Assembly: GCA_963770045.1 (NCBI GenBank)
Contig: CAVYOD010000029.1
Span: 69,487 to 133,486 of the forward strand
From: Candidatus Aminicenantes bacterium
GTDB taxonomy: Bacteria; Acidobacteriota; Aminicenantia; Aminicenantales; CAVYOD01
Reading direction: 5' to 3'
DNA: 64,000 bases
Below are positions 8,667 to 43,282 of this stretch, one piece after another. The position numbers were made by a program, and so were the translations under genes. The notes beneath the pieces were generated by a model. It did no database searches, was not told the origin of the DNA, and saw only the letters and a list, made by a program, of their open reading frames with translations. Numbering within the stretch: the first letter of the stretch is position 1; each line of letters begins with the position of its first letter.

Positions 8667-11600
8667 GAAAATCATCGAGTTTTCCGCCAAGAACAAGTAC
8701 ATCGTCATCCTTCTGGCCTTAGCCGCCATTGTCGCCGCCATCTACTGCATCAAGAACATCCCCCTGGACGCCATCCCCGACTTATCTGACACACAGGTCA
8801 TCATCTATTCCCGCTGGGACAGGAGCCCCGACATCATCGAAGACCAGGTCACCTATCCCATCACCACGGCAATGCTCGGCGCCCCGAAAGTCAAAGCCAT
8901 CCGCGGGTATTCGGATTTCGGTTTTTCCTATGTCTATGTGATTTTCAAGGACGGGACAGATATCTACTGGGCGCGGAGCCGGACGTTGGAATACCTGAGC
9001 AAGATTCTGCCCAGGCTGCCCGAGGGTGTCAAGACGGAAATCGGCCCGGACGCGACGTCCGTCGGCTGGGTTTATCAATACGCCCTCGTCGATAAGACTG
9101 GAAAGAACGACCTGGCCGAATTGCGCAGCTTCCAAGACTGGTACCTCCGCTATTGGCTCCAGGGAGTTCCGGGAGTGGCCGAGGTCGCCTCGATCGGAGG
9201 GTTCCAGAAGCAATACCAGGTTAACGTCAGCCCGACTGCGCTGGCTGCCTTCAAGATCCCCCTGATGAAGGTCGTCGAAGCGATCAGGGAGGGCAATAAC
9301 GACGTGGGCGGGCGCCTCGTCGAATTCACCGGGACCGAGTACATGGTCCGGGCGCGGGGCTACGCCAAATCCGTCGCCGACCTCGAGAACATCGTCATCG
9401 GCAATGACATGAAGGGGACGCCTGTCCTGGTCAAGAACGTGGCCAATGTCGCCCTCGGGCCGGAAATCCGCCGCGGGGTCGCGGATCTGGACGGCGAAGG
9501 CGATACGGTGGGAGGGATCGTCGTCATGAGGTTCGGGGAAAACGCCCTGAACGTGATCAATCGGGTCAAAGAGAAAATCAAAGACGTCCAACCGTCCCTC
9601 CCCAAGGGCGTGGAGATCGTGACCACCTATGACCGGTCCGAGCTGATCAAGCGGTCCATCGATACCCTGAAGCATCAGCTGATCGAGGAAATGATCATCG
9701 TCAGCTTTGTCATCCTCATATTTCTCTGGCATTTTCCCTCCGCGATTATCCCCATCCTGACGATTCCCATCTCGGTCTTTCTGGCCTTCATTCCTCTCTT
9801 CGGCATGAAGCTGACGTCCAATGTCATGTCCCTTTCCGGAATCGCGATTTCCATCGGCGTGCTCGTTGACGGAGCGATCGTCGAGGTCGAAAACGCTTAT
9901 AAGAAATTGCAGCTCTGGCTGGCCGGCGGCCGCAAAGGCGACTTTCACGAGGTCCGGCTGAACGCCCTCAAGGAAGTCGGGCCGTCCGTCTTTTTTTCCC
10001 TGCTGGTCATCGCCGTCGCTTTCCTGCCGGTGTTTACGCTTGTCGACCAGGAAGGCCGGCTGTTCAAGCCGCTGGCCTACAGCAAGAACCTGGCCATGGC
10101 CATCGCCGCGCTGCTCGCCATCACGCTGGACCCGGCCATGCGCATGTTGTTCACCCGGATGGACTACCATCATTACCGGCCGCGCTGGTTATCACAGATC
10201 ACAAATACGATCACGGTCGGGAAATATTATCCGGAAGAGAAGCATCCGATCAGCAAGATCCTGTTCAAGATCTATGAACCGGCCTGCCGTTTCGTTCTCA
10301 GATACCGTAAAGGCACCATCATCGCGGCTGTGCTATTGATGATCACGACGGTCCCCGCCTATTTGAAGCTGGGTTCGGAATTCATGCCGCCGCTCAACGA
10401 AGGGACAATCCTCTATATGCCGACAACCCTGCCGGGCATTTCCGTTACGGAAACGCAGCGTCTCCTCCAGACAATGGATAAGATCTTCAAGGAGACCCCG
10501 GAAGTCGCGCGGGTCTTCGGCAAGGCCGGCCGGGCCGAAACATCAACCGATCCGGCTCCGTTCTCGATGATGGAGACGACCGTCGTCTTGAAGCCGGAGA
10601 GCGAGTGGCGGAAGGTCAAGCGATGGTATTCGGGCTTGCCCGGGATCATGCAAAGGCCGTTCCGATTCATCTGGCGGGACCGGGTTTCCTGGGAAGAGAT
10701 CGTGAACGAGCTCGATCAGAAGATGAGGTTTCCCGGCGTCTCGAACGCCTGGACCATGCCCATCAAGGCGAGAATCGACATGCTGTCGACGGGAGTCCGA
10801 ACGCCCATCGGTATCAAGGTCTTCGGCGCGGATTTCAAAGAGATCGAAAATATCGGCCAGCGAGCTGGAGACGAGTCATGAAAGACATCCGGGGGACGCG
10901 GAGTATTTTCGCGGAGCGCGTGAGCGGCGGATATTTCGTCGATTTCTTCATCAAACGCAACGAGATCGCCCGCTACGGCCTTTCCGTCAAGGACGTCGAA
11001 ATGGTGATCATGTCGGCCATCGGCGGCGAGCCGGTGACCACGACGGTCGAAGGCCGGGAGCGCTATACGGTCAACGTGCGCTACGGCCGGGAATGGCGGG
11101 ACGATCTGGACAAGTTGCGGCGCGTCCTGGTGCCGACCATGGCCGGGGCCCAGATCCCCCTCGACGAGCTCGCGGACATCAAGCTCGCCTACGGCCCTTC
11201 CATGATCAAAGACGAAAACGGGATGATAACCGGCTATGTTTATGTCGATATCACAGGCCGCGATGTAGGAGGTTATGTCAACGAGGCCAAGAAAATCGTC
11301 CAGGAAAAAATTCACCTGCCCGCAGGATATTCCCTCCAGTGGAGCGGCCAGTATGAGAACATGCTCCGGGTCAAGGAACGGCTAAAAATCGTCATCCCCC
11401 TGACGATCTTCATCATCTTTCTCTTGCTGTTCATGAACACCAAATCGCCGGTCAAAGCGGGCATCGTCATGCTGGCCGTGCCGTTTTCTCTCGTCGGCGC
11501 GGTGTGGTTTCTGTTCATCCTCAAATTCAATGTTTCGATCGCCGTCTGGGTGGGCATGATTGCCCTGATGGGACTGGACGCGGAAACGGGCGTGTTTATG

Positions 11601-11963
11601 CTGCTTTTCCTCGACCTCTCCTATTATGACCAGGTCAGGCAGGGACGGATGAAAACATTCGACGACCTGAAGGAGGCGATTGTCCATGGCGCCGTGAAGC
11701 GCATCCGGCCAAAGATGATGACGGTAACGGCGATGTTCATGGGGCTCGTCCCGATCATGTGGTCGATGGGGACGGGCTCGGACATGATGAAAAGAATCGC
11801 CGCGCCCATGATCGGCGGCGTGTTCACGAGCTTCATCATGGAGCTCCTGGTTTATCCGCCCATCTACGCGATCTGGAAATGGCGCTATGAGATGAAACAG
11901 GGCACGGTTGATGTCAGCCGGCTCCCCATCCCGCAGCTTGGGAAGCATGGAATCCAAGACTGA
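8659..11963 (+). CDS. cusA: CusA/SilA-type heavy-metal efflux RND permease (frameshift ~10865)
   Basis: LDAIPDLSDTQVI, GPDATSVGWVYQY, GSEFMPPLNEG, RIDMLSTG, GAVKRIRPKMMT and KRIAAPMIGG motifs. Confidence 0.9.
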
Positions 11964-12073
11964 GGGACGTTCCCCAAGGGGACACCCTTGAGGCTTCCAG
12001 CTAACAATCACCGCCTGATTAGGAGGGAAGGTTAGATGGAAGTCTCAAGGGTGTCCCCTTGGGGAACGTCCCT
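11963..12073. repeat. Long inverted repeat between convergent genes (REPIN/MITE-like; possible bidirectional terminator)
   Basis: 30-bp perfect arms 11963-11992/12044-12073, extendable to 43 bp with 2 mismatches, 25-nt loop. Confidence 0.9.
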
Positions 12074-12078
12074 ATTTA

Positions 12079-13255
12079 CTATTTACTATAAAATTTATTG
12101 ATACAATCGACAACGTAGTCTTGCTGCTCTTGCCTTAGCTCGGGATAGACAGGGATCGCCAGGACCTCGCGGGCCGCTTTTTCTGCTTCCGGAAAATCAC
12201 CCTCCCTGTATCCGAGCCCGGCGAAGCACTTTTGCAGATGAAGCGGGAGCGGATAATAGACCGCCGTCCCGATGCCCTTTTCTTTGAGCCAGGCCTGGAG
12301 CTCGTCCCGGCGACTGACCCGCAGGACGTATTGATGATAGGTATGATAGTTCGTGGCGCCGCTCTGCTTATAAAGAGCCTCGGGTGTTTGGAGCAGCCCC
12401 TTTCGTGTCAGCCCGGTGTCCTCGAACATCCGGTCATAAGAGGCGGCTCTCCGCCTCCTCTCCTCCTGCCAGTGTTCCAGTCGCTTGAGCTTCACTCTGA
12501 GGACGGCGGCCTGGATGGCGTCAAGCCGAAAATTGCCGCCGACGGTCTCGTAAAAATATCTTTGTTTTTCCCCATGCGTGCGCAGGATTTTGACTTTTTG
12601 GGCCATGGCCTCGTCGTTGGTCAGCACCATGCCGGCGTCACCGAAGGCATTCAAGTTCTTGGAGGGATAGAAAGACAGGGTTCCCAGGTCGCCCATGGAT
12701 CCTGCTTTTTTGATCCCGTCGGGTAAGGGATAGTCGACGCCGATGGCCTGGGCCGCGTCCTCGATCGTCGCGAGATTGTGCTTCCTGGCCAGCGACAGGA
12801 TGGCCGTCATCCCGGCACACTGGCCGTAGAGGTGGACTGGCAGGATGGCTTTGACTCTCGGCAGATCGCCCTTTTTCCCGAGGGCGTCCAGCAGCTCCTC
12901 CAGTTTCTCGGGATCCAGGTTGAAGCTCCGGTCTTCGATGTCACAAAAAACGGGGCTAGCCCCCACTCTGACGATCGACCCGGCGGTGGCAAAGAATGTG
13001 AACGGAGTTGTGATGACCAAGTCGCCGCGGCCGACATCCAGAGCCATGAGCGAGATGATCAGAGCGTCAGAGCCTGAAGAGACACCCACGGCGAAACCGC
13101 GCCTGGCTGTAGGCCGCGACCTCTTTTTCCAGGGCCTCCACTTCCGGGCCGAGGACGAAAATCTGAGAATCGATGACTTCCAGGACCCGCTGGTTGATCT
13201 CGTCGCGGATGGACCCGTATTGTGCTTTTAAATCCAAGAGCGGTATGTTCATCAT
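12079..13255 (-). CDS. DegT/DnrJ/EryC1/StrS family PLP aminotransferase (frameshift ~13095)
   Basis: IPLLDLKAQY N-terminus; PVHLYGQ, EDAAQA, SFYPSKNL, NFRLDAIQAA and YYPLPLHLQ motifs. Confidence 0.92.
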
Positions 13256-18679: not shown

Positions 18680-19672
18680 ATGAAAATCAAGGTATTCTCT
18701 GAAAAGGATATCCGCCGGGCCGTTCCCATGGAACGGGCCATCACCGTTCTCAAGGATGCCTTCATCCAGCTTTCGGCGGGGAAAGCCAACGTCCCCTTGC
18801 GATCCGCCATTCCCGTTTCGGCACACTCGGGTCAAACCTTGTTTATGCCTGCTTATCTTGAGGGCAGCGGAGCCCTCGGCGCGAAGATTGTCTCCGTTTT
18901 CCCGGACAACCGGAAGCGCGACCTTCCGATCATCCATGCCCTAGTCATTCTTGTCGACTCCAGCACAGGGGTGCCGCAGGCCCTCTTGGATGGAACCTAC
19001 CTGACCGCTCTCAGGACCGGCGCCGTCTCCGGCCTGGCCACGGAACTCCTGGCCCGCAAGAACGCCCGCACCGCGGCTATTTTCGGGGCGGGTGTCCAGG
19101 GAAGGACTCAACTGGAAGCTATCTGCCGGGTTCGACACATCGAAAAGGTTTGGGTCTTCGACCCCAACACCAAGGCCGCGGAGAATTTTGTTTCCGAGAT
19201 GAAATCCCTCGGTCAACCTATCCCGGAGGCAATTTTCACGGCACGCTCGTCTTCGCAGGCCATCGAGGAGGCGGACATCATCTGTGCCGCAACCACATCT
19301 TCAAAGCCGGTCTTTGCCGATTCTGATCTCAGACCCGGAACGCACATCAACGGCGTGGGCTCATTTACACCGGAAGCGCAGGAAATCCCGTCCGAAACGG
19401 TCATCCGTGCCAAAGTCATCGTCGACTCCCGTCAAGCCTCACTGGCCGAAGCCGGGGATTTGATGATTCCTCTACGGAAAGGATCGATCGGACCGGACCA
19501 CATTTATGCGGAGCTCGGGCAGATTGCCGCCGGCCAATTGCCGGGTCGGGAAACCAGGCAGGAAGTGACCTTCTTCAAATCCGTCGGTCTGGCCATTCAG
19601 GATATCGCCGTTGCAGCGCAGGTCCTCCAGGAAGCCGAGAAGTCCGGCTTGGGTACGGAAGTGGATTTTTAG
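18680..19672 (+). CDS. Ornithine cyclodeaminase/mu-crystallin family protein
   Basis: [21 protein letters not shown] and [10 protein letters not shown]; TTGAAA-17-TAAAAT at 18615-18643. Confidence 0.9.
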
Positions 19673-19794
19673 AGACGCTCAGATCGTCGTCCTTTTTCTT
19701 CATTTCCTCCGTCACATCAATTGGTTTGAAAAGAAAACAGGATTGAAGAAGTTCTTTTATTTTGTTCTTGACGAGACAGACGGGACGACGTCTT

Positions 19795-20862
19795 TTATAG
19801 CCCGAAGCGAAGGCGAAGCGAAATCAGGGCGCCGAAGGTGTTGAGGTTGATGGCCGCCTTTTTGACCCCGCTGATGTCGCTTCCCTCGGGCGCGCTCTGC
19901 CAGATCCACATCGCCGGATAATTCTTGGCCAGTTGGTTGTCTTTGACGTTGTAGGTAAAGAGATTTCCGTGTTCGCTGGAGGATCCGGTCGAGGTCTGAT
20001 CATAATACCAGCCGAGCCGCTCCTGCCAGAGCTGGTCCCGGGTCGTCCAGGAGTCCGCATAGTCGCCGGCCCAATTGGAGAAATTCACCAGCCGGCCGAA
20101 CACCTCGAAGCCAAACGAGATGAAGGAGGTGAGGTTCATTTCGAGACCGAGGCCGCTCCTGAAGCCAATCCTGTTCTGCTTGCTCGTTTCTTTGGCCGCG
20201 CTGTTGAATTGATAGTTCTCTTTTTCGTTGTAGTAGTACCAGGAGTCGTCTTCATAAGCATAAGTGTATTCATTCTTGAAATCATGAGTCAGCTTGGCAA
20301 AGTAGTAGCCGACGCCGCCATAAAAATAGAGGTTGAATTTCTGGGAATAGCCGAGGGGCAGGGAATAATAAAGGTTGAGGGTTATGGGAATAGCCTGAAT
20401 CTTGTAGTTTTGAGCGAATTTATCGGTCTCCGTTTCGGTGAAGGTGCCCCACCAGGGGCTCTGGGTCGTGCTTCCCTGGATAGAATAATTGCCTTTGGAA
20501 GTCGCGCTGCAAAAGCCAGTGCCCACTCCGATTCCGAAGTGTCTGCCCAGGTTGAGGATGACCTCGGCGTTGAAGTCGGGGATGACCGAGAGTTTCTTCC
20601 AATCGAAGGCCGAGGAATAACCCGGATTCTGGCGATAATCACTGACATATTGCGCTCTCCCGGAGCGGAATCGTTCCAGGTCCCCGGCTCCGTTGAGGAG
20701 GTACCCCGCCCCGCCCGAGAGTTTCAGGCCGAGGTGCAGGCCGCGACTCGACTGCGCGCGATCTTCCTTCGCGCCTCTCGCCGAGCTAACAAAACAAAAA
20801 ATAAACATGGCCAGGGCCAAAAGGGTCGACCCATTCTTGAAAAGCCGTCTGGTGAGCGTCAT
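19795..20862 (-). CDS. Outer-membrane beta-barrel protein
   Basis: Signal peptide, amphipathic aromatic-rich beta strands (AIPITLNLYY, YGGVGYY), C-terminal LRLRFGL. Confidence 0.65.
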   Translation of the reverse strand: MTLTRRLFKNGSTLLALAMFIFCFVSSARGAKEDRAQSSRGLHLGLKLSGGAGYLLNGAGDLERFRSGRAQYVSDYRQNPGYSSAFDWKKLSVIPDFNAEVILNLGRHFGIGVGTGFCSATSKGNYSIQGSTTQSPWWGTFTETETDKFAQNYKIQAIPITLNLYYSLPLGYSQKFNLYFYGGVGYYFAKLTHDFKNEYTYAYEDDSWYYYNEKENYQFNSAAKETSKQNRIGFRSGLGLEMNLTSFISFGFEVFGRLVNFSNWAGDYADSWTTRDQLWQERLGWYYDQTSTGSSSEHGNLFTYNVKDNQLAKNYPAMWIWQSAPEGSDISGVKKAAINLNTFGALISLRLRFGL

Positions 20863-26852: not shown

Positions 26853-26998
26853 CCTAGACCTCCCTGTCCTCTGATTTCCCGAAGCTGCCGGTGCAAACGT
26901 TAACAAGAAACAAGATAAGAGTCAAGAAAAGAGGTGGTGGCGGGAGGGACTTGTGGAGTCGCTGAAGGACTTGGCTCTTGAGGGGAAAGGACAGGTCA

Positions 26999-27026
26999 TT
27001 GAAATTTCAAGTATTGCGAGTATAAT
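26999..27026 (+). promoter_or_regulatory. Promoter of the GNAT-PKS operon with a palindrome over the -35 box
   Basis: TTGAAA-16 nt-TATAAT; perfect palindrome TTGAAATTTCAA at 26999-27010. Confidence 0.55.
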
Positions 27027-27225
27027 TCAGGTATGCGTCTGAATTTTTGCACGCCACCGGCAGGTGAACTATGGATGACAAATGGCTATCGGCTTCCTTA
27101 AAGGACGGTGAGCAGTGCGTCCGTGACAGTGGTCGTTGCTGCGGGAGTTATGTGCGCCCTGCCGTACGGCCAAAAAAGTCCTATGAGCTAATGTTTTGGT
27201 GATAGCCTCTCGAAGGATATAAATC

Positions 27226-28348
27226 ATGGCCGGCATAGATATCATTACCGTTGAAAGAGAATCGGAGTTGAAGGACTTCATCGATCTTCCATGGAGGATT
27301 TATGCTGCGTACCCCAGATGGGTTCCTCCCCTTAAGAAGGAGGTTCGCCGGTTGCTGGACCCCGCCAGGCATCCTTTCTGGGAGTCTGCCGAGCGCGTCC
27401 TCTTTCTGGCCCGACGCGGTTCGGAGACCGTGGGAAGGATCGCGGGCATCATCGACCGTGCTTATAACCAGTTCCACGGCGAAAAGATGGGCATTTGGGG
27501 GTTTTTCGAATGCGCCGATGATCAAGAGGCCGCGGCGGCCCTGTTCTCTTCCGTGGAGACGTGGGTGCGCCAGAAGGGGATGACCTTCATGCGAGGCCCG
27601 CTCAGCCCGTCCACCAATTACGAGGTCGGGTTGCTCATTGAAGGATTCGATTATCCGCCTGCGTTGATGATGCCTTACCACCCGCCGTACTACTCAAGGT
27701 TGGTCGAATCGTGCGGTTTTGCCAAAGAGAAGGACCTGCTGGCCTTCTTGATAGAGGGCGATTACCAGCTTCCCGAGTGGATGGATAGCCTGGCCGGACG
27801 TATCGCCCAGAAAAAGGGCATCCACATCAAACGCATCAATCCAAAGGATGTGAGACGCCGAGTTTGACCTGATCAGGGAGATCTACAATGACAGCTGGTC
27901 GGGGAACTGGGGTTTTGTCCCGTTGAGCGATCATGAGATGCGGGACATTCAAAAGAACGTCATGCAATTCACGGATCCGGACCTGGCTTTCTTCATCTAT
28001 TATGAGAACGAACCCGCCGCAGTGTGTGTGATCTTTCCCGACATGAATCCTTTCCTCAAGCGTCTCAACGGCCGGATCGGCGTGATGGGTTTGCTCAAGG
28101 CGCTCCTGTATCGGCGGGAAATCAAGGGAATGCGATTGCTGATGTTCGGGATCAAGGACAAGTACCGGCAGATGGGCATTCCCCTCTTGGCCTTCCACCA
28201 CATCTATGAGGTCGTGAGGGAAAAAAAGAAATATCGTTATCTGGAGCTTGGCTGGACGCTGGAGGATAACGAGGCGATCAACTCATTGATAGAGGAAGCC
28301 GGCGCAAAGCTATATAAGAGATATCGCATCTTCAGAAAGTCTTTATAA
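27226..28348 (+). CDS. YghO-like tandem GNAT acyltransferase (bacterial ceramide synthase-like family; frameshift ~27850)
   Basis: FIDLPW.IY...WVPPL, HPFW, VGRIA, GFFEC, GLLIEGF.P...MPY.PPYY, NWGFVP and ELGWTLEDN...K.YRIF. Confidence 0.8.
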
Positions 28349-28390
28349 TGTAAACAGGTGAACGAACAGAGTTGAAACGGAGGTCGGGAT

Positions 28391-31300
28391 ATGTTGGTTG
28401 AGTATCGGGTTCCCATCATCGCTTTCGTCTGGCGGCCTGAGGAGATCATCCCGCCGGTAACCCAAATGGCTCATCGAACGGGGAGCCGGGCGATCTTCGA
28501 TTTTTCAATGATGGAGACGCAAGCCCTGCATTCTTTCCTGCGAAAGGCTGCCCCTGCTTGTCGCGTTGAGGATATCAAGATCTCTGCTGCCACCTTCATG
28601 GATCCATCTTTGGGGCGGTTGCTGAAGGAAACAGGAGTCCAGAACATCTGGGTCGAATGCCACCCCCAGTATTTCCGGGGGGATACTTCCGGCTTTCTCC
28701 AGAGATTGAGAGAATTGTCGGAAAACACCGTTGTTTTCCAATCGTTGGAGACTTGGATATCCTGGCGACGATTTTGAAGGATCGTTCGGGAATTGGACGC
28801 ATCGTCCTGAAAGGATGCGAGGCCTCTGGATTCGTGAGCGGTGAAACAACCTGGCTTCTCTATTCGGCAGCCAAGGAAATGCTGCGCGATTCCGCGAAGT
28901 CTCCGGACATCCTCATCTGGGGCGGCGTCTGGACGCCTGAGGCGGCAGCGGCATTTTTGTCCACAGGAGCCGCAGGTATAGTATTCGAGAGCGTCCATTG
29001 GCTGACGGACCTTGTGGCCATTGATGACCCCCAACGCCAGCAACTCGCCAAAATCCGCATGGATTCCACCTCACTGGTTGGCTTAGACATGCAGGTTCCT
29101 TGTCGACTTTTCAATAAGGGGAACTCGGTGGCGTTCAAGGAGATCAAAGCGTTCGAGGACTCGCTGTGCAAAACAGATATCACGGAGGAAAGCCGCCGCT
29201 GCTTCGTCGACCACGTGAATTCCATGTCCCGACAACCTCTGAAGAGCCATTTCACCAAAGACGAGGTCATCCCTCTGGGTGTGGAGGCTGCCTTTGCGGC
29301 GTCGTTTGCTGAGCGTTTTGGGGCCGGAACCGAAAAGGCCGTGAACGCCTTCATCGAAGAGATTCGAAACTTATGCCGCTCGGCTGAGGTGAAAAAGGAT
29401 TGCTTTTTAGACAGCCCTTCAGCCAAGGAGCTGGGAACGAAATATCCATTTATCCAGGGCGCCATGTCCTCCATCACCGATATCCCGGAGTTTGCCGCGA
29501 GAATTGCTGATGCCGGAGGATTGCCGACGATCGCCCTTGGCCTGATGAATGCGGAGGCTCTTGATCGGAGACTGGGTCGTCTGCCAGAAGTCATGGGAGA
29601 GCGATCTTATGCCGTGAATATCATTTCTTTGGCGGAGAATCCTTTCCGGGAGACTCAGCTGGACTGGATAAAGAAAACCAAGCCCCGTTTTGTCTGGATC
29701 GCCGGAGGGGATATCTCTCCCATAAGAGAATTGCTGGAATGTGGCATAGAGGTGGTTTATATCGCCCCGGATGAGGCCCTGCTGAAGCTTGCGCTGGAAG
29801 CGGGCGTGCGGTACGTGGTCTGCGAGGGGTATGAGGCAGGCGGCCACGTGGGGCAACATAGTACACTGACCCTTGCCCAAATCGTGTTGGACCTCAAACG
29901 GCAAAAGCCAACCCTGTTCCAAAATTGTCGCGTGATACTTGCCGGGGGGATATTCAATCGTGAAACCGCATTCATGGCCGCCATGCTCGGCGCAGACGCC
30001 ATCCAGATGGGCACCGCCTATCTGGCCACACAGGAGATCGTTGAAACGGGCGCTATGACGGCACTCTATCAGCGGATGGTTCTGGAATCGTCTCCGGGGG
30101 GAACAGTCGTTACAGGTCGAAGCACCGGACTTCGGGTGCGGTCATTGAGGACACCGAGAGTGGCCGCTGTTTTATCTCTGGAGAGAAAATTTGCAGCGGG
30201 TCACCAGGATGAGACCTCCTTCCGGACAAAAATGGAGGAGATGACGGCGGGGAGTCTCTTCGTTGCCGCCCGAGGTATGGATAAGCAAGGTAAGCCTCTG
30301 TCTGAACGGGCCTGTATGGAACGCGGGCAATTCATGAGCGGGGCCAGTGCCGGACTTATCAGTAAAGCACAGAAGTTGGAGTCCTTTCACCGCGAGTTGG
30401 CCGAAGGGGCTCTTGACCTGCATCAGCCATTTAAAGGGGCCAGTGAAGAAATTGACCTCTGACGTATCGCTGCCTCAAACAACTCCATCCTTCGGTGTTG
30501 GCCGGGCGGACGTGCGCAAAGGCGATCATGAAAGGGTTGCCATCACAGGGATGAGCATCGTTAATGCCCTGGGGAAGAGTCCGGAGGAGACATGGGCTGC
30601 AAGTCTGGCCATGAAGAGCGGAATTACACGTATTCCGTCTTCATGGTGGGACCAGGAGCGTTTTTATGATCCCCGGCCGCACATCATGGATAAAACCTAT
30701 TGCAATGTCGCTGCCTTTATAGATTTTCATGCCTCACGCAGCGAACTCGGGATTCCGCCCCATGATTTTCGAACGATGACCGAGGCCACAAGGATCACCA
30801 TGTGGCTGGCTGAAAATGCCATCCGGGCCTCCGGCATCCTGGAGTCAGGCATCCCTCGCGAGCGGATCGGAGTCCTGATCTCCCAGAACTCGGGAGAGAC
30901 GGCGGCAACCCTTACACCTTTGCTAATCAGGGAAAATGTTCACAATATCCTTGCGGCCATCCGACAAACGGTTCCTGTAACGCCGGAGCAGGAGCAAGCC
31001 ATCGAAAAAGAGTTAAAGTCCAGATATATGGCCCCGGACGACACCACGCTTCTGGGCAGACTCAGCTGCACAGCGGCCGGCTTCATCTGTAACCGGTATG
31101 GGTTTATGGGTCCCAGCTTTTCCGTCTCCGCGGCCTGCGCGACCTCACTGGTCGCACTCCACAGCGCCATCCAGATGATACGAAACGGAATCATCGATGC
31201 CGCCGTCGTCGGAGGGGGTGAGGAGAAGCTCACCCACATCCATTTTATAGAATTCTCCGCGCTGGGCGCACTTTACGGACTTTCCGGGCGGGAAAGACCC

Positions 31301-34300
31301 GCTCACGAATGCTCGCGTCCCTTCGATGCCGAAAGAGATGGAATGGTCCTCGGCGAAGGCGGGGGAATGATCGTTATCGAGCGGGAAAGTCTGGCGCATA
31401 AAAGAGGAGTGCCTGTCCACGCCATTATTACCAATATGGGAGCGAGCAATAATCATCTGGGTATGGTGGAATCATCAAGTGTCACCCAGGAAATTGCCAT
31501 CGGCAACTTCTTTCCGCGGGATACCCTATGGACCCGATGCCGTGGACATGGTGGAATGCCATGCCACAAGCACTCGGCAAGGAGACGTCGAGGAGGTTCG
31601 TGCTCTGAAGACATTTTTCAAGCCCTCCAATCGCACAATGCTGACCTCATTCAAATCCCAGATCGGACACACCCTGGGCGCCTCGGGCATCAACAGTCTC
31701 ATTCGAGGAGTCACGGCCATGAAGGCGGGGGTTTTACCCCCTACCCTCAATTATGTGCATCCAGACCCGCAGATTGGTCTGGAAGGGTCTGGGCTTTTTG
31801 TCGCCCCGGAGCCGCTTGATTGGAAGCGCAGGGACGGCCAGCCAAGAAGGTTTCAGGTCAATGCCTTCGGGTTTGGAGGGTCCAACTATGTTGTGCAGTT
31901 GGAACAGGCCATGAATGGAGAGGATAAGGTATTGATTTCCCCGGGGAAAGAGGCTCAAACGGGAGGCGACCATTCGGCGCTCCAAGGCGTCTCTTTCTTC
32001 CGCACTAAGGTTGACGGCGGTAACTGCCGGATGGCCGTCGTGGCACAATCCGAAGAAGAGGCGATCACGGCCATGGAAAAGTCGGCTTCTCTTATCGAAG
32101 CCGGAATCGCCGCACCCAAAACATTGAGGTCTCTGGCGCAGCAGGGAATCTTTATAAGCCCTGAGAATTTGCCGGTGCCGCCGCTGGCTTTTGTATTTCC
32201 CGGACAGGGGGCACACTATATCGGAATGGGGCGGGAACTCTATGAGTCCTTTGGCGTCATCAAGGAATGGATGGATAGGGCGGCAGCGGTAGCGGATTTT
32301 GACCTCCTTGACTTATTGTTCCATGATCAAGAGGAAAACCTCCAAAAGACACGGTGGCAGCAGCCTGCTCTCTTCACTATGGAATACGCCATGGCTCAAT
32401 ATCTTGTTTCTCTTGGCATTAACCCTGCGGCTATGGCCGGCCACAGTCTGGGCGAACTGACAGCTTTGTGCATGGCCGGCGTATATTCCATGGAAGATGG
32501 GTTCCGAATCGTGAACATGAGAGCCCGCTGCATGGACAAGGCCGCCGCTATGAATATGGATCCCGGTGTCATGGCGGCCGTGGATGCCCCTATGGAAATG
32601 CTGAAAGACATGATGAAGGGACAGGAAAATATCCACATTGGCAATATCAATTCACCGAACCAGGTCATCCTGAGCGGCAACACCGAGACCGTCAAGAATC
32701 TTGGCAAAAAATTGAAAGAGATGGGATACCGATTCACCCTCTTGCGGGTGAGCATGGCCTTCCACTCTCCTATCATGCGGGTCATCCATGACGAACTCGA
32801 GGCGTATGTGGCCTCCATTCCCTTTCATTCTCCAAAGATACCCGTCATCTCCAACACGACCATGGCGCCGTATCCATCAGATTCCGGTGAGATCAGGCGA
32901 ATCCTCATGGCCCACCTGGAGTCCACCGTCCATTGGAAGAATAACGTTCAGACCCTTTGGAACGACTACGGAATCCGGCTCTTCGCGGAGGTGGGCCCTG
33001 GCGATATATTAAGCAATCTCATCACCGACACGCTCCCTGACTCAACGTGCATCCAGACCTGCATCCCCCCTGCAGAGTGCGTCACTTACAAGACCGCCCT
33101 TGCTCAGCTCTTCGTTCAAGGGCATCTGAAGGTTCGCAGAGAACCGAGGGTTGTTTCCCTCTCTGCATTCAGGAAGGCTCCCGCATCTGGCCGCAACACG
33201 CCGGACGGACAGGCCTCCCCTGCCCGCGCCGAGACGTCCGAGCATCAGGGCCATATAAAGGCGCTTATTCAAATCATCATGGACGCGACAGGATTCAACA
33301 GGGATGAGATTCAACCTGATATGGACCTCCGAAGGGATCTCTCCATCCGCTCCAGCCGTCTCCCGATCATCATGGACGCCGCGGAACGCCATTTCGGAAT
33401 CACCATCGAACTGGAGGATTTCATCCATGTCCGCACCGTGAGGGACATCGCGCAGAAGATTTCCGAGATCGTCGCCAGGAAAGAAGGTACCAGCCTACCG
33501 CCGGCCGCCAAGGCGGTTACTTCGGGCTCTGCAATCCCGGACGGACAGGCCTCCCCTGCCCTCGCCGAGACGTCTGAGCATCAGGACCATATAGAGGCGC
33601 TTATTCAAATCATCATGGACGCGACAGGATTCAACAGGGATGAGATTCAACCCGATATGGATCTCAGAAGGGATCTCTCCATCCGCTCCAGCCGTCTCCC
33701 GATCATCATGGATGCCGCGGAACGCCATTTCGGAATCACCATCGAACTGGAGGATTTCATCCATGTCCGCACCGTGAGGGACATCGCGCAGAAGATTTCC
33801 GAGATCGTCGCCAGGAAAGAAGGTACCGGCCTACCGCCGGCCACCAAGGCGGCTGAACCCGGCTTAGTGCAAGATGAAACCCTGAAGCCCTTACAGGATG
33901 AGGCGAGTTTAAAGCGGCTCGTATTCAAGAGCGTTCCTATGGAGCTATCGGCCTCGGCTCCAATAAAATTGAGCCAAGGCGAGTCGGTGCTTTTTCTCTC
34001 ACCCGACAGGGATGACGAGATTGCCAAAAATGTCGGAGATATATTCCGGCAGGATTACGGGGTTGACACGATTCCCATGTTATTTATGCGGGCGAAAGGT
34101 CCTGGACAAGAAGGTTATGATATTTTGACGGATGAAGGGTCTTGTAAGGTATCACAGAGAATATCGAGTTTGGCGTCCCTGGCCGGGATGGTTATCACCT
34201 TGCCTAAAGGCTGGTCGGGAAAGATAAAAGGCATAGCGGATGTTTCGCGGCTTTTGAGGGGACTATTTTTACCACTGAAGGCCTTTCTCCAGTCACCGGC

Positions 34301-36365
34301 GAAGAAGTTCGTCGTGCTTATTCATTGCCGAGATGATGCCGAAACTCTCGGCCGGCTGCCGGCGGAGGGAATGCTCGGAATGTTCCTGAGCGCATCGCAG
34401 GAATACTCATCGGTCCAGTTTCGCACACTGGAAATCGACAGAGCTGCCGATCTTCGCGCTGCCTTACGCGGCGCTCTGGACAGAGGATACACCGCGGTGG
34501 AGATGATTCATCGTGATGGAAAGGTTTTCACCTCGGAGGGACATGTGGCTCCCTCGATCTTCAGAAATCTTTCAAGTCTAAATCTTAATCCTGGAGACGT
34601 TGTCGTTATGTCCGGGGGCGCATCCGGTATCAGCGCTCACCTGGCTCGCGGCCTTGCGCCCTTTAGGCCACGCATAGTTTTCCTGGGAAGGACTCCTCTA
34701 GATGCAGCGATCCATTCTGCAAAGACGGCACCGGGGCCGCTGCCTTCTGAGTCGAATGCCATCCGGCCGCAGAGCATCGGAGATTGCTCAGACACTGGCG
34801 GATTTGCACTCATCGGGAATCGAGGCGGCATACTATACCTGCGATGTCACGGACCCCAAGGCGGTTGGCGCTGTTATGGGTGAGGTGGCCAAGCGTTATG
34901 GCAAGATCGACGGAATCATTCACGGCGCCGGGGTCTTAAGGGATGGTTTCCTTGACCAAATGACGCCAGATGACTTCTCAACGGTCGCGGATGTCAAGTT
35001 CCTCGGGGCCGCGAATTTATTTTCGGCGGCAGAGAAGGCGGGCTTGAAGTTTTTTGTGGGCCTGTCCTCGGTGGCCGCAATCCAGGGCAATCCCGGCCAG
35101 ACCAACTACGCGGCGGCCAACCGGATGATGTCTGCGTTCATCAGATACATGGGCCCCAAACATGGGGCCGTGCGGTTCAAGGCTTTGATGCTTCCCCCCA
35201 TCGAGGGGGCCGGCATGGCCGAGGATCCGGAAGTCCGCGAAATGTTGCAAGCGAAAGGGTGTGGGGTACATCCACGTCACATGAGCTTGCCGGGCTTTTC
35301 TGCAGAGAGCTTTTTGTGGCCTCAGCCGACGACGATTGGGTGATGTTTATGAGGAGACTGCCGGCCCTGAAGACGGCGCGGATCAATGGTGCCATCCGTC
35401 CTTTATCCGGTGGGGAACTGGGCGGGGGGGCCGTGGCCTTTAGCTGCGAGACCTTACCCATGATAGAGGGAATCACAAGCCTGGACATGCGTCAGGGGCA
35501 ACTGGAGGCCGTGAGGTCGTTTTCTCTGGAGAAGGACCTTTGGATAGCGGACCACAAGCCTTTCAAGTTCGTCAAGCATCCTCTGGTTTCAGCGGCGATG
35601 GTTCTGGAGACATTCATGGAAGCCGCAAGGGTTATGTATCCTCATCTGCAGGTGCGCGGGGTTCGCCAGATGCGATTTATGGAAATGATACTATGTCCCC
35701 CGGGGATTCCGCGGCCTTGCAGGATATCCTGTCGGCGAGTCGATACTTTGCCTGGAGAGGCGATGTGCGAAGTTTCTCTTTCAGCACAGGAGATGTCTCC
35801 AGCCGGAAGATTGACAGATCGCTTTACGCTGCACGACATAGGCCAGGTCATCCTCGATGGCGGCCAAGGCCATTTAGGGGAGGGGTTCTCTGATTTCCCG
35901 ATCCGGCTGGACGAATTGCAGACGCAGCCCATGGATCATCATAAGGTCCTTCAATGGTACGCAGACGGCTCTGGATTCGAAGGCAGGTACCGTGTGATAG
36001 ACTTTCTTGACGGCGCAGGTCCAAGGGTGGTACGGGGCCAAACCACCTACCGGCAGATGAGTGATTTCGCACATCTGCAAAACGCGCAGTACCAATACTC
36101 ACCTTATCTTTTCGAGGCGCTTATGCAATTGGTTGGCTTCTACATAGCCGCAATGGCCCCAACGCAGCGACAGGCCATGATTCCCGTAGAGGTTGGCGAG
36201 ATGAGATTTTTGCGAAAATGCCGAGAGGGAGAACAGATAACCCTGGAGGCTCGAATGCGGATGGAGGATGAGAAAGGCTTCATCTGGGACGCCAGAGGCA
36301 TTGACGATCAAGGCCGCACCATCATGCAGGTTTATGGTATGCGAATGCAAAAAGTTTCGGAGTAA
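28391..36365 (+). CDS. Iterative type I PKS / PUFA-synthase-like megasynthase: ER-like x2-KS-MAT-ACP x2-KR-DH (probably one gene; frame breaks ~28725, 30450, 31500, 34750, 35270)
   Basis: TIM-barrel ER motifs KGCEASG and IQGAM...EGYEAGGH...AGGI...QMGT; KS SAACATS/ECHATST/KSQIGH; MAT FPGQG/GHSLGE/AFHS; two ACPs; KR GGASGI/HGAGVLRD/YAAAN; DH WIADH. Confidence 0.85.
33201..33852 (+). repeat. Near-identical tandem duplication of the ACP domain (336-bp period)
   Basis: 33201-33516 and 33537-33852 differ only by scattered substitutions. Confidence 0.95.
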
Positions 36366-36383
36366 AGCGTTAGCTCGGAAAAA

Positions 36384-37130
36384 ATGAGAGCGGATGTGAT
36401 AAAGGATTGCCAGGAAATAACCGTCAAAGCCGTAAGTTTCCCTCATCAAAGAGGAACCGTCTTATATGCGTGCTCGCCATCTGACACCGAGACTATCGCA
36501 GGTCACAGAGCAAGCCGGACGGCAGATAAGATTCATTTGGTATCTATTCTGCGGGAGCATCTTGTGGGGATGGAAGGTTCTCCCTGGACAGACTGTCATT
36601 TCTCCAATAGAGCGGATTTACCAATTCAGGTGGTCCACGACCCGCTTGGCAGGCCGCAACTCCTACTGGGAGAATGTGAGGGGCCGGCCATTTCTTTTAG
36701 CGAGGGCGGCGGAAAAATATGGGCCGCTCTCTGCGGAGATACGTCAGATATCGGTATCGATGCGGCAGGGACAGATGAATTCCCAAAAGAGTATCCTTTT
36801 CACCGGGTCTTCCATGGACAAGAGCTTCAACATGCCTTGAGGTTGACAAGCGGAGATTTGGAAAAAGCATCCGCCCTGCTCTGGTCTATCAAGGAAGCTG
36901 CTGTCAAGGCATTGGGATGCGCATTCCATCTTGTGGATCCGCGGCAAATCTGCGTCTATCAATCGGCTGCAGGAAAGGACGGCTGGCATCTCTTTAGAGT
37001 GTGCTTATCAGGAAAGGCACTGGTGCGGTTTCCCATGATGGCCAGCCGATTCATATTGGTGCGTTCGCTTTTCCAAGAGAAGATGTGGCTTTCCATCGCC
37101 CTGTTGAATTGGCAACTGATCAGGACCTAA
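36384..37130 (+). CDS. 4'-phosphopantetheinyl transferase
   Basis: DPLGRP, IGID and LWSIKEAAVKALG motifs; directly downstream of the PKS. Confidence 0.85.
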   Translation: MRADVIKDCQEITVKAVSFPHQRGTVLYACSPSDTETIAGHRASRTADKIHLVSILREHLVGMEGSPWTDCHFSNRADLPIQVVHDPLGRPQLLLGECEGPAISFSEGGGKIWAALCGDTSDIGIDAAGTDEFPKEYPFHRVFHGQELQHALRLTSGDLEKASALLWSIKEAAVKALGCAFHLVDPRQICVYQSAAGKDGWHLFRVCLSGKALVRFPMMASRFILVRSLFQEKMWLSIALLNWQLIRT

Positions 37131-37221
37131 AGGCCATGAATAACCTTAGCTGCAATTGCGTGCCGCGCTTAGACGGAGTGTCGGCCTAGGAACTTGGATG
37201 GCTTTTCCCCAGACCCTTCTA

Positions 37222-37572: not shown

Positions 37573-37737
37573 ATGGGCGAGGTCATCGACAAGACTAAAG
37601 GCAAGATCAAGCAAGCGGTAGGGGACTTGACCGGCAACAAGAAGCTCAAGCGAGAGGGCGAAAGGGATGAACTCAAAGGCCGAGTCAAGGGCGTGGTCAA
37701 GGATGTGAAGCGCGCGGTCAAAGATGCCGTGAAGTAA
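37573..37737 (+). CDS. CsbD family stress protein (54 aa)
   Basis: MGEVIDKTKGKIKQAVGDLTGNKKLKREGERDELKG...; GGAGG RBS; below the ORF-track cutoff. Confidence 0.9.
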   Translation: MGEVIDKTKGKIKQAVGDLTGNKKLKREGERDELKGRVKGVVKDVKRAVKDAVK

Positions 37738-37994: not shown

Positions 37995-38348
37995 CTAGCG
38001 AATAGCCGGCATTGGGCCGTGGCGGATCGTCACCAGCACTGGAGACTTCAGAACGAACGTCAGGTAGGCCTGACCCTCAGCCTCACGGTCAAACGCTGCC
38101 GGAAACTCCAGCAGAACAGCCTGGCCATAAGAGATAACACCCGGAACGACGGCTAAGTCCACGCAACGATCGAGCATGAGAGGATGAATGTTCAGGGGCG
38201 CCAAAAATCTCCGCAGTTCCTCTGGTTCCGCGTCTTCAATATCAAACCAACTCTCGCCGAGTTGGCCCGGTTCCCCCGCTGGCAAACCTGATGGGGCCGG
38301 TTGCTTCTGCAGCTTCCCCGAACTGAGCAAGTACCAGTTGATTCTCAC
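37995..38348 (-). pseudogene. CorA-family Mg/Co transporter N-terminal fragment
   Basis: WFDIE..EPEEL...LNIHPL.L and VLVTIRH resemble the CorA cytoplasmic domain; no GMN/TM region follows. Confidence 0.55.
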
Positions 38349-38662: not shown

Positions 38663-38739
<77 letters not shown>

Positions 38740-41694: not shown

Positions 41695-43282
41695 ATGAGT
41701 TTTCCAATATTGAGCTTTCTGACGTTCTTCCCGCTGCTGGGTGCGCTCCTCTTGATCTTTGTCAATAAAGAAAAGAAGAACGGCCTCCGGGCGATCGCTC
41801 TGGCCGTGACGTTGATCAATTTCGCCGTCTCGTTGGCGCTCTATTTCAATTTCAACGGCCAGACTCCCGACCCCCAGTTCGTGGAAAAAGGCGCCTGGCT
41901 CGGCTACGGCATCAATTATCATCTCGGGATCGACGGGATCAGCCTCTTCCTGGTTATCCTGACGACTTTTCTGATGCCCATCGCCCTTCTCTCCTCCTGG
42001 ACTTCCATCCAGGATAGGATCAAAGAGTACCTTATCTTCATGCTCCTCCTGGAGACCGGGATCATCGGTGTCTTTGTCTCCCTCAACCTTTTCCTCTTCT
42101 ATGTCTTCTGGGAGGCGATGCTCATCCCGATGTATTTTCTGATCGGCGTCTGGGGAGGACCGCGCAAGATCTATGCGACGATCAAGTTCGTATTGTTCAC
42201 GATGACGGGCAGCCTGCTCATGCTCGTGGCCATCTTTTTCCTCTATTCGCTCTATTACAAAGCCACGGGCGTCTATTCGCTCGAGCTCTTTGATTATTAT
42301 AAAGTCATCCTCAATCCTCAGGTCCAGACGCTGGCTCTTCCTGGCCTTTTCGCTCGCCTTCGCCATCAAGGTGCCGATGTTCCCCTTCCACACCTGGTTG
42401 CCCGATGCCCACGTCGAAGCCCCCACGGCCGGATCGGTCATCCTGGCCGCCGTGCTCCTGAAGATGGGAACCTACGGCTTTCTCCGGTTTGCCATGCCCC
42501 TCTTTCCGGACGCCCTGGAGAAATTCCTTCCGGTGCTGAGCGTCCTGGCTCTTATCGGGATCATCTATGGCGGGCTGATGGCCTTGATCCAGAAAGATAT
42601 CAAATCGCTCGTCGCCTATTCCAGCGTCAGCCATATGGGACTGATCATGCTGGCTGTCTTTTCTTTGACGATCGAAGGAACGCAGGGCGCCATCTACCAG
42701 ATGCTTAACCACGGGATGAGCACCGGGGCGCTGTTTTTGATCGTCGGCATCCTCTACGAGCGTTCGCACACGCGTCTGATCAAGGACTACGGAGGCGTGG
42801 CCCGCCAGATGCCGGTCTTCACGGCGTTCTTCCTGATCTGCATGCTCTCGTCCGTAGGACTCCCCGGGCTCAACGGCTTTGTCGGGGAGATCCTTTGTTT
42901 CTTCGGAATTTTCAAGGCCAGCCGGCTCCTCTCGATTCTGAGCATTTCGACGATCATCCTGGCCGCCGCCTATCTTCTCTGGATGTACCAGAGGGTCATG
43001 CACGGCCCCATCACCAACCAGAAAATTCTCTCTTTCAAAGATATCAACAAGAGGGAGATCGGCTACCTGGTGCCGATCATCATCCTGATGTTCTGGATGG
43101 GCATCTATCCCCAGACGTTTCTCCGGAAGATGGATGCCTCGGTGTCCAATCTAGTCAACCGCATCCAGCAAAGAGAAAAAGTCTTCATTCGATCCCAGAA
43201 AGTGGATCAGACGCTCTCCCAGCCGGTCTCCAGCCTTCAGCCCTCGAAGACCGATAAGTCGGGGAAAGACAGAGTCCGATGA
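41695..43282 (+). CDS. nuoM: NADH-quinone oxidoreductase subunit M (frameshift ~42325)
   Basis: [34 protein letters not shown] and [11 protein letters not shown]. Confidence 0.93.

Follow-up and report, generated by a model that had tools for sequence, protein, structure and literature searches.

A mobile three-gene block of a YghO-family acyltransferase, a fatty acid synthase-like megasynthase and a phosphopantetheinyl transferase in anaerobic bacteria of several phyla

Introduction

The ceramide pathway described for Caulobacter crescentus and Escherichia coli B comprises serine palmitoyltransferase (Spt), the ceramide synthase bCerS (CC_1154 in Caulobacter; YghO, ECD_02850, in E. coli), the epimerase-like reductase CerR and the proteins AcpR and AasR. 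CC_1154, which has its counterpart in yghO ECD_02850, was described as an acyl-CoA N-acyltransferase needed for dihydroceramide (PMC9386255), and the Caulobacter enzyme was named bCerS and sited at the cytoplasmic face (PMC11087976). In the passages of both papers on which we draw, there is precedent for a donor bound to acyl carrier protein (ACP) at the Spt step, the donor for N-acylation is taken as acyl-CoA, and no synthase of the kind reported here is mentioned. We analysed a window of 64,000 nucleotides, the whole stretch of DNA under study, from Candidatus Aminicenantes bacterium (GenBank assembly GCA_963770045.1, contig CAVYOD010000029.1, positions 69,487 to 133,486), which carries at 27226-37130 three genes on the plus strand: a GNAT-like acyltransferase, a megasynthase and a 4'-phosphopantetheinyl transferase (PPTase). 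This three-gene block is a real, conserved variant of bacterial sphingolipid-type biosynthesis, undescribed within the literature searched, and its probable role is to equip a sphingolipid-like membrane lipid with a special fatty chain. As in the ceramide pathway, the acyltransferase belongs to the YghO family (32 % identity), and Spt-like and epimerase genes accompany it in some of the relatives. Unlike that pathway, the cassette GNAT forms a separate paralogous clade and is tied to a PPTase and a megasynthase, the latter of 2545-2708 amino acids in the intact relatives listed.

A second related system is PfSgaAB(C) of Pseudomonas fluorescens MYb115, the only case of a bacterial polyketide synthase (PKS) for sphingolipids found in the literature searched (PMC12134224). 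As described in the passages of that paper, an iterative type I PKS serves sphingolipid synthesis without a thioesterase-type release, like the present megasynthase. Compared by these descriptions, the PKS of PfSgaAB has an alpha-oxoamine synthase (AOS) as partner, which turns the chain into a long-chain base, whereas the constant partner in the cassette is an N-acyltransferase. Homologues of PfSgaAB were reported mainly from Burkholderia (PMC12134224); the cassette carriers are peat and sediment anaerobes.

The synthase itself resembles PfaA/PfaD of polyunsaturated fatty acid (PUFA) synthesis and the secondary lipid synthases of Shulse and Allen 2011 (PMC3098273) in its order of ketosynthase (KS), malonyl-type acyltransferase (AT), tandem ACP, ketoreductase (KR) and dehydratase (DH), and in an enoyl reductase (ER) of the NMO/FabK fold. 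A dedicated Sfp-type PPTase and a patchy distribution by horizontal transfer are further features shared with these synthases, as far as the passages of that paper go. Unlike in PfaA systems, the ER of the cassette is fused at the N-terminus and duplicated. PfaB/PfaC partners (a second KS or chain length factor, a FabA-type DH) were not found in the cassette cluster; the other KS/AT matches of the genome were the type II FabF/FabG on contig C22 and an AT-region match on contig C20. The best fragment scored 273.4 bits against the PfaA model TIGR02813 (cut-off 1010), and the PfaD model TIGR02814 gave 38 bits (cut-off 449). The nearest secondary lipid synthase is Type J, an ER gene followed by KS-MAT-ACP3-KR; neither the single-gene layout nor a GNAT occurs in any type described in the passages drawn on (PMC3098273). 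In our literature searches, judged by the passages returned, no paper joined a bCerS/YghO-type enzyme to a dedicated synthase, and the match to a characterised pathway that a first-pass annotation of the sequence had considered as a counter-possibility did not turn up.

Composition, linkage and transfer of the block

The co-oriented order of GNAT, megasynthase and PPTase that the first-pass annotation had read from the letters was borne out by the open reading frames (ORFs) and their Pfam matches. The features of the block are:

26996-27225, plus strand: upstream leader, part of the conserved, transferred block
27226-28348, plus strand: YghO/bCerS-family tandem-GNAT acyltransferase (ORFs 27226-27867 and 27923-28348; 373 amino acids in intact relatives)
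28391-36365, plus strand: type I fatty acid synthase (FAS)/PKS-like megasynthase, six overlapping ORF pieces with Pfam/NCBIfam domains, a single polypeptide in relatives
28391-29400 (end approximate), plus strand: degenerate duplicate of the FabK-type reductase, from a BLASTP self-comparison (KGCEASGF at 28810-28833)
29431-30402, plus strand: FabK/NMO-type FMN enoyl-ACP reductase domain (EGYEAGGH at 29824-29847)
30530-31754, plus strand: ketosynthase domain (Pfam ketoacyl-synt 173.9 bits, Ketoacyl-synt_C 79.6 bits)
32190-33041, plus strand: acyltransferase domain, FabD-like (Pfam Acyl_transf_1 163.3 bits; NCBIfam fabD 230.1 bits, below the cut-off of 260.9)
33216-33833, plus strand: two tandem ACP domains (two stretches of Pfam PP-binding; DLSIRSSRL at 33336-33362 and 33672-33698)
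34614-35300, plus strand: ketoreductase domain (Pfam KR 119.9 bits; GGASGIS at 34614-34634, YAAAN at 35107-35121)
35499-36359, plus strand: polyketide-type double-hotdog dehydratase, the last domain (Pfam PS-DH 56.7 bits, PKS_DH_N 18.1 bits; His motif at 35544-35564)
36384-37130, plus strand: 4'-phosphopantetheinyl transferase, 248 amino acids, intact (Pfam ACPS, PF01648, 37.1 bits, cut-off 25)

The PPTase is of the Sfp type, a class that we assigned by protein length (248 amino acids).

With one genome scanned per species, 119 relatives were detected and 80 loci were kept; relatives of the Geobacteraceae, Desulfobulbaceae and Syntrophobacteraceae are among them. The megasynthase follows the GNAT in 76 of the 77 assessable loci, so that the synteny on which the first-pass annotation had made its reading depend does recur in other genomes. 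Three of the remaining four loci end at the GNAT; the fourth, L034, has a B12-binding radical SAM (DUF4070) gene (11157-12752) directly after the GNAT, followed by the contig end. Of the 42 loci that extend far enough, 41 have a PPTase behind the synthase, the exception being L025 with an XhoI-like restriction endonuclease (19302-20126) in this position. The gap between GNAT and synthase is below 200 bases in 49 of 76 loci and about 920-1480 bases in 26 of the other 27. A 280-amino-acid gene without a Pfam match lies between the two in 24 of the 80 loci (e.g., L051:11119-11961 and L017:11119-11964), frequently with stop and start overlapping; the window lacks it.

The DNA similarity between the window and the other loci does not extend beyond 26996-37145, a stretch of about 10.1 kb made up of the three genes and the 230-base leader; depending on the locus compared it begins at 26996 (L001, L004) or at 27082 (L002, L003). 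A 503-kb contig of a Sedimentisphaerales (Planctomycetota) metagenome-assembled genome (MAG), L001, is 93.8 % identical over 26996-33516 and 90.0 % over 33536-37145, and the block identity to Aminicenantales MAGs is 93.3 % (L002) and 92.0 % (L003). In the adjacent nuo operon the identity to the L002 and L003 genomes (G302 and G207/G303) drops to about 70 %; G207, a carrier of L003, belongs to the same order as the window's genome. The Sedimentisphaerales genome has a single 39-base match to the operon. The best matches of NuoL, at 72-78 %, were in Aminicenantes MAGs and MAGs labelled Eubacteriales. A block 93-94 % identical beside a nuo operon of about 70 % indicates a recent horizontal transfer between unrelated anaerobic bacteria, and the mobility of the cassette across phyla is striking. 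Since the transferred unit is exactly the three genes and their leader, the GNAT appears to be selected together with the synthase. Contigs from four public wetland, peat and sediment metagenome runs, which represent relatives at 90 % identity or more and not the source sample (the best run shared at most 0.27 of words), cover the block and, with the exception of a tRNA, not its flanks. In even species samples the cassette is rare: of 301 host-phylum genomes two carry it (the window's genome and G207), and the sample of the G336 phylum, also 301 genomes, has seven carriers.

The leader contains a sigma-70-like site, TTGAAA-16-TATAAT at 26999-27026 (score 11/12); the total of promoter-like sites, 6, was not above that of shuffled sequences (mean 7.2).

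Domains of the megasynthase

Pfam and NCBIfam searches with the window fragments and with an intact homologue of 2641 amino acids (L023) gave the domain order ER'-ER-KS-AT-ACP2-KR-DH. The active-site motifs read from the sequence beforehand are all present: in the KS the cysteine motif AACATS (31130-31147) and the two histidine motifs ECHATS (31554-31571) and QIGHTLG (31659-31679), in the AT GHSLG (32439-32453) and AFHS (32757-32768), the YAAAN of the KR and the histidine motif of the DH. The absence of a release domain was likewise confirmed: neither in the fragments nor in L023 did Pfam detect a thioesterase, thioester reductase or condensation domain, and nothing lies C-terminal to the DH, the stop being at 36365. 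In its KS-AT part the protein is similar to modular PKS and to mycocerosic acid synthase, the latter being among the best PDB sequence matches (E 1.1e-68).

The N-terminal third, overlooked in the first-pass annotation, consists of an enoyl reductase and a degenerate duplicate of it. The reductase domain gave 146.6 bits to NCBIfam TIGR03151 (FabK; below the cut-off of 453) and 80.8 bits to Pfam NMO, and its best PDB sequence match was the trans-2-enoyl-ACP reductase II (FabK) 2z6i (E 3.6e-29). Residues 1-330 and 331-700 of L023 are 29 % identical over 124 amino acids (BLASTP, E 4e-6), and the duplicate carries KGCEASGF in place of the EGYEAGGH of the active copy. Of the PfaA-type layout proposed before, the order KS-MAT-tandem ACP-KR-DH thus stands in the Pfam domains; with its fused ER and duplicate the protein is not simply of the PfaA type. 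Judged by its domains the megasynthase is a complete reducing FAS-like unit, which would work iteratively and with malonyl units. With a fused ER in the set, a saturated chain is to be expected, a better reading than the "unusual reduced chain" formerly proposed.

The two ACP copies are near-identical in translation, and their number varies between relatives. One metagenome contig has one ACP repeat fewer, skipping 344 bases with the joint 33197>33542, and the identity to several loci shifts at about 33520 within the repeat. Four loci are closer to the window downstream of it (L068 94.3 %, L060 87.6 %, L076 86.5 %, L053 85.9 %) than upstream (77-85 %), which suggests recombination at the ACP repeat in these loci. 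The repeat (33201-33852) seems to be a hotspot of recombination and copy-number change.

Affiliation of the acyltransferase

The assignment of the first gene to YghO-like GNATs was well founded. The GNAT of L023 is 32 % identical to YghO of E. coli K-12 (E 8e-68) with 368 of 373 residues aligned, and the window fragments showed 34 % and 32 % identity in tblastn. Neither these fragments nor the intact relative had a Pfam or NCBIfam match above cut-off, and a search of PDB sequences with the GNAT gave a chance match only and no solved bCerS. An AlphaFold2 model of the L002 GNAT from an alignment of 34 sequences (pLDDT 92.3, pTM 0.90) had tandem-GNAT N-acetyltransferases as best PDB folds: 5kf1 (E 6e-15, TM 0.61-0.70), 7q3a and 2wpw. 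By sequence and predicted structure the enzyme is a member of the YghO/bCerS family with a two-lobed (tandem) GNAT fold.

A quick maximum-likelihood tree of 97 rows included the cassette copies, 20 paralogues of the host phylum, the two other paralogues of the host, a second GNAT of L170, and YghO, with which the first-pass annotation had suggested that the GNAT be placed. The family is shared, and the cassette copies are separate: 70 of them form one clade (SH-aLRT 100) with very short inner branches and six phylum labels. YghO, the Spt-adjacent copies of the phylum and the host paralogue on contig C21 all fall outside this clade; four further rows outside it (L016, L019, L051, L069) are the second, canonical GNATs of those loci. 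By its position in the tree the cassette GNAT is a distinct paralogue and not an orthologue of the Spt-linked ceramide synthase. The CoA-binding motif (R/Q-x-x-G-x-G/A) showed no loss in cassette GNATs relative to the paralogues, all rows keeping YRxxG; the motif thus does not discriminate CoA from ACP donors. A predicted complex of the GNAT with the synthase ACP received a score of 0.00 (mark 0.32) in a prediction without control runs.

The window's genome has a third YghO-like paralogue at C22:203948-205066 (L088:15946-17136, minus strand), with the housekeeping fabF/fabG about 8 kb away. In the quick tree it groups with L185, L186, L189 and L194, and this clade is sister to that of the cassette copies (support 80). 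The host phylum also contains several YghO-like matches within frames of 674-867 amino acids (G035, G165, G226, G051, G212, G059, G005, G121), which may be fused acyltransferase forms.

Proposed function of the block

We propose that the block is a self-contained mobile acyl-chain module serving a sphingolipid-type pathway, in which the GNAT would pass a saturated chain, made by the synthase, from the ACP to the amine of a long-chain base; we hold this as a whole quite possible, if somewhat short of an even chance. The Sfp-type PPTase would arm both ACPs. The megasynthase, as an iterative type I FAS with AT, KS, KR, DH and FabK-type ER, would form the saturated chain from malonyl units on its ACPs. 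The adjacent tandem GNAT would take the acyl chain straight from the phosphopantetheine thioester of the ACP and attach it to the amino group of a 3-ketosphinganine-like long-chain base, which the host's own Spt-like enzyme would supply. This step would both free the chain and form a ceramide-like lipid with a special N-acyl chain. We infer the emptying of the synthase by the GNAT from the missing release domain, the invariant pairing of both genes and their transfer as one unit. Among possible acceptors a long-chain base is the most likely, given that the GNAT belongs to the ceramide synthase family and that base-forming enzymes co-occur with the cassette. Both the off-loading step and the product are put forward as hypotheses.

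Direct transfer from an ACP thioester to a nucleophile of a lipid acceptor has parallels that share the logic of this proposal: mycocerosic acid synthase, an iterative synthase without thioesterase that the separate acyltransferase PapA5 empties, and the GNAT-fold N-acyltransferases OlsB and LuxI-type synthases, which depend on acyl-ACP. PapA5 has a condensation fold, not a GNAT fold; OlsB and LuxI are single-lobed and use the housekeeping ACP.

The first-pass annotation had left the acceptor undefined for lack of a serine palmitoyltransferase gene in the window. The whole contig (C29) indeed carries no Spt-like gene, but a genome search detected an Spt-like enzyme on contig C21. The gene lies at 16.7 kb, divergent from an epimerase gene, and scored 530 bits to NCBIfam NF047600 (cut-off 640). 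A canonical-type YghO paralogue on the same contig (46.8 kb), 40 % identical to the cassette type and 36 % to YghO, groups with copies of the same order. As this paralogue is already present in the host, the cassette would add a second N-acylation route with a private chain.

Among relatives, 50 carrier genomes from the 80 loci were searched, loci on short contigs and six more being left out. Thirty carriers had a stand-alone Spt-like AOS of at least 440 bits to NF047600. In another 12 the AOS part lies in an open frame of 1113-1218 amino acids close to the cassette; two of these large frames were examined and both are FAAL-ACP-AOS fusions. A Spt-like or fused AOS was therefore present in 42 of 50 carriers. 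At E<=1e-120, Spt-like matches were found in 31 of 50 carriers compared with 73 of 301 genomes of the host phylum and 59 of 301 of the G336 phylum; the numbers of cassette carriers in these samples (2 and 7 of 301) are too small for a within-phylum 2x2 test of cassette versus Spt-like gene. In the host-phylum sample 71 of the 73 Spt-like-positive genomes are also YghO-like positive, 13 have the YghO-like gene alone, and the pair is often adjacent; all 27 sampled genomes of the host's order and class carry both.

Tridomain FAAL-ACP-AOS proteins of about 1110-1220 amino acids near the cassette are encoded at L169:4388-7969 (minus strand) and L170:3387-6740, in L170 followed by a further GNAT of 376 amino acids. 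Their domain make-up resembles the proteobacterial trio AasR, AcpR and Spt joined in one protein. An AOS fused to its own FAAL and ACP suggests a base made from free fatty acid, which would leave the chain of the megasynthase for the N-acyl position.

The flanks of the 80 loci contain recurring families: an NAD-dependent epimerase/dehydratase in 31, mostly directly upstream and co-oriented, ABC ATPases in 19, PLD-like proteins in 11, PAP2 proteins in 10 and B12-radical SAM proteins in 5. The flank AOS has serine palmitoyltransferase as best NCBIfam match (565 bits, cut-off 640). Six loci show the order epimerase, AOS, canonical-type GNAT, PAP2 (opposite strand), cassette GNAT, 280-amino-acid gene, megasynthase.

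Several observations weigh against transfer of the chain to a long-chain base. The cassette clade stands apart from the Spt-linked GNAT copies on a stem of 0.9 changes per site, and the cassette GNAT coexists with a canonical copy in six loci and in the window's genome; both suggest that its acceptor or reaction may differ. The AOS lies within the 10-kb flanks of 9 of the 80 loci only. Eight of 50 carriers have neither class of AOS: three were without a match at E<=1e-60, and one has a split AOS, which sits beside the cassette. None of the Spt-like hits reaches the curated NCBIfam cut-off, and the Spt enrichment among carriers is overstated, as kin genomes are not independent. As to the donor, Caulobacter bCerS is described in the passages drawn on as an acyl-CoA N-acyltransferase (PMC9386255).

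The same machinery could serve another acceptor, an amino acid, polyamine, lyso-aminolipid or amino sugar, to give an N-acyl amino lipid unrelated to ceramide. The remote position of the clade, the eight carriers without stand-alone or fused AOS, a minimal three-gene block that travels without an AOS, and the amino-sugar and small-amine N-acetyltransferases among the best fold matches would all suit such an enzyme. We nevertheless regard it as unlikely in view of the Spt-like or FAAL-ACP-AOS proteins in 42 of 50 carriers against a background of 59-73 in 301, of the six loci in which the block adjoins a reductase-like epimerase, a Spt-like AOS and a canonical-YghO-type GNAT, and of the epimerase/dehydratase genes, mostly directly upstream and co-oriented, in the flanks of 31 loci.

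Alternatively, the megasynthase might feed the long-chain base itself: a Spt-like AOS would condense the ACP-bound chain with an amino acid, and the GNAT would N-acylate the base with acyl-CoA. The PKS and AOS pair PfSgaAB of P. fluorescens MYb115 makes long-chain sphinganines, as described in the passages of that study (PMC12134224); this precedent establishes AOS-mediated release as a means of emptying a synthase without thioesterase. A paralogue devoted to an unusual base would also account for the coexistence with a canonical GNAT. Yet no AOS gene lies on contig C29, and only nine of the 80 loci have one within the 10-kb flanks; what stands constantly beside the synthase is the GNAT (76 of 77), and the transferred unit contains no AOS. 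Moreover, 12 carriers have their nearby AOS in a frame of about 1110-1220 amino acids, and the two checked are joined to a FAAL and an ACP of their own, a sign that the base derives from a fatty acid. This route appears to us rather improbable.

Two other ideas were set aside. A link to branched tetraether lipids (brGDGT) was dropped, the domain set being without sign of chain coupling or ether formation. The GNAT as a loading domain, known from PKS starter modules where such domains sit inside the synthase, received low weight, as no evidence for that role was found.

The window's genome has a second AOS on contig C34 (25000-36000, L083), with 427 bits to the Spt model. Its neighbours are a UbiA-type prenyltransferase, a 589-amino-acid protein with lipid-kinase-like and AIR-synthase/ThiL-like parts, and a DevC-like ABC permease; the region is possibly another lipid cluster.

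Frameshifts in the present copy

In this assembly the PPTase is a single open frame, and neither the GNAT nor the megasynthase is. The closest intact relative, the Aminicenantales MAG locus L002, served as reference for calling insertions and deletions (indels). A blastn comparison gave a single high-scoring pair of 9.9 kb with 93.4 % identity and 8 one-base gaps:

27853-35280, no strand: seven one-base coding indels (extra base at 27853, 30453, 31513, 34758, 35249 and 35280; missing base at 28730)

The eighth gap, an extra base at 36370, is intergenic. One indel affects the GNAT (27853) and six the megasynthase, where 31513 lies in the ketosynthase and 34758, 35249 and 35280 in the ketoreductase. 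When frames are switched, the L002 proteins can be aligned to the window over their full length, at 87-91 % identity: the GNAT over residues 1-373 in two frames (91 %), the megasynthase over all 2667 residues with the frames 2>1>2>3>1>3, i.e., five changes (87-90 %), and the PPTase with 91 %.

We consider the seven frameshifts most probably as assembly errors rather than decay. All indels are single-base, six of seven being insertions, and the comparison with L002 revealed no nonsense substitutions or larger deletions in the cassette. The dN/dS values between window and L002 (acyltransferase 0.28, synthase 0.25, PPTase 0.38) are like those of the intact pairs L002-L001 (0.31, 0.21, 0.33) and L002-L006 (0.17, 0.22, 0.38). 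Codon changes private to the window have a ratio of nonsynonymous to synonymous counts of 0.7-1.1, those private to L002 of 0.6-0.8; a rough neutral expectation, from general knowledge and not computed, is about 3. The metagenome contigs have a frame-keeping state at or within a few bases of each indel. Other genes of the window are split as well: nuoM is interrupted by a one-base frameshift near 42331 (frame 1 to 2). Together, the missing nonsense changes, the dN/dS values, the frame-keeping contigs and the split nuoM led us to this reading.

If the frameshifts were real, this copy would be a decaying pseudogene left by the recent transfer, which would be compatible with any function of the family. 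The indel density speaks for decay and against plain random error, which does not predict 7 indels in the 9.9-kb cassette and 1 in the adjacent nuo operon of about 6 kb; a block common to several organisms in one sample may, however, cause consensus errors in a long-read assembly. The host already carries a canonical YghO paralogue, and reads of the source sample for checking the indels did not turn up among the sequencing runs searched, which likewise included no RNA run containing the sequence. Set against the single-base nature of all indels and the window-specific ratio far from the neutral value, a pseudogene seems to us improbable.

Further pairs of same-strand ORFs overlapping in different frames are 7241-7960/7548-8666, 8659-10881/10605-11963 and 49733-50938/50560-51666/51360-52373. 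Such pairs suggest indel errors across the assembly, with nuoM as the verified case.

Environmental relevance

By current understanding, bacterial sphingolipids occur widely in anoxic waters, peat and sediment; most producers are uncultured, and the enzymes behind the unusual chains are not known. In the euxinic water of the Black Sea, (1-deoxy)ceramides with N-acyl chains >C31 have been reported without a known producer or enzyme, according to the passages of the study drawn on (PMC11334938); the word polyketide does not occur in it. The cassette could be a plug-in that moves between phyla of anaerobes, in which a private type I FAS makes a very long saturated chain and a bCerS paralogue transfers it from ACP to a long-chain base, thereby equipping any host that makes sphingolipids with a new class of ceramides. 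As stated to this full extent, the idea is speculative and rather unlikely. If true, the amide chain of sphingolipids would have its first dedicated fatty acid synthase, and the Black Sea lipids a candidate source; for enzymology, a bCerS-type GNAT would act as the release enzyme of a megasynthase. A compact module of three genes can be synthesised and expressed, so the question is directly testable. The block identity, compared with housekeeping neighbours at about 70 % even within the order, points to a cross-phylum exchange of membrane-lipid chemistry in wetlands, a point to be weighed where such lipids serve as taxonomic or environmental biomarkers.

Flanking genes

The neighbours of the block are a cyclase, PAS/HD genes, a tRNA and nuo genes. 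An Rfam scan of the window had the tRNA as its only match. The tRNA and a truncated gene beside the transferred block may mark an insertion site; integrases and repeats were not searched for. On the 3' side follow a CsbD-like ORF of 54 amino acids (37573-37737), a remnant of a CorA-like transporter, present as a 117-amino-acid N-terminal fragment (37995-38348, minus strand), the tRNA-Met (38663-38739, minus strand) and then the nuo operon.

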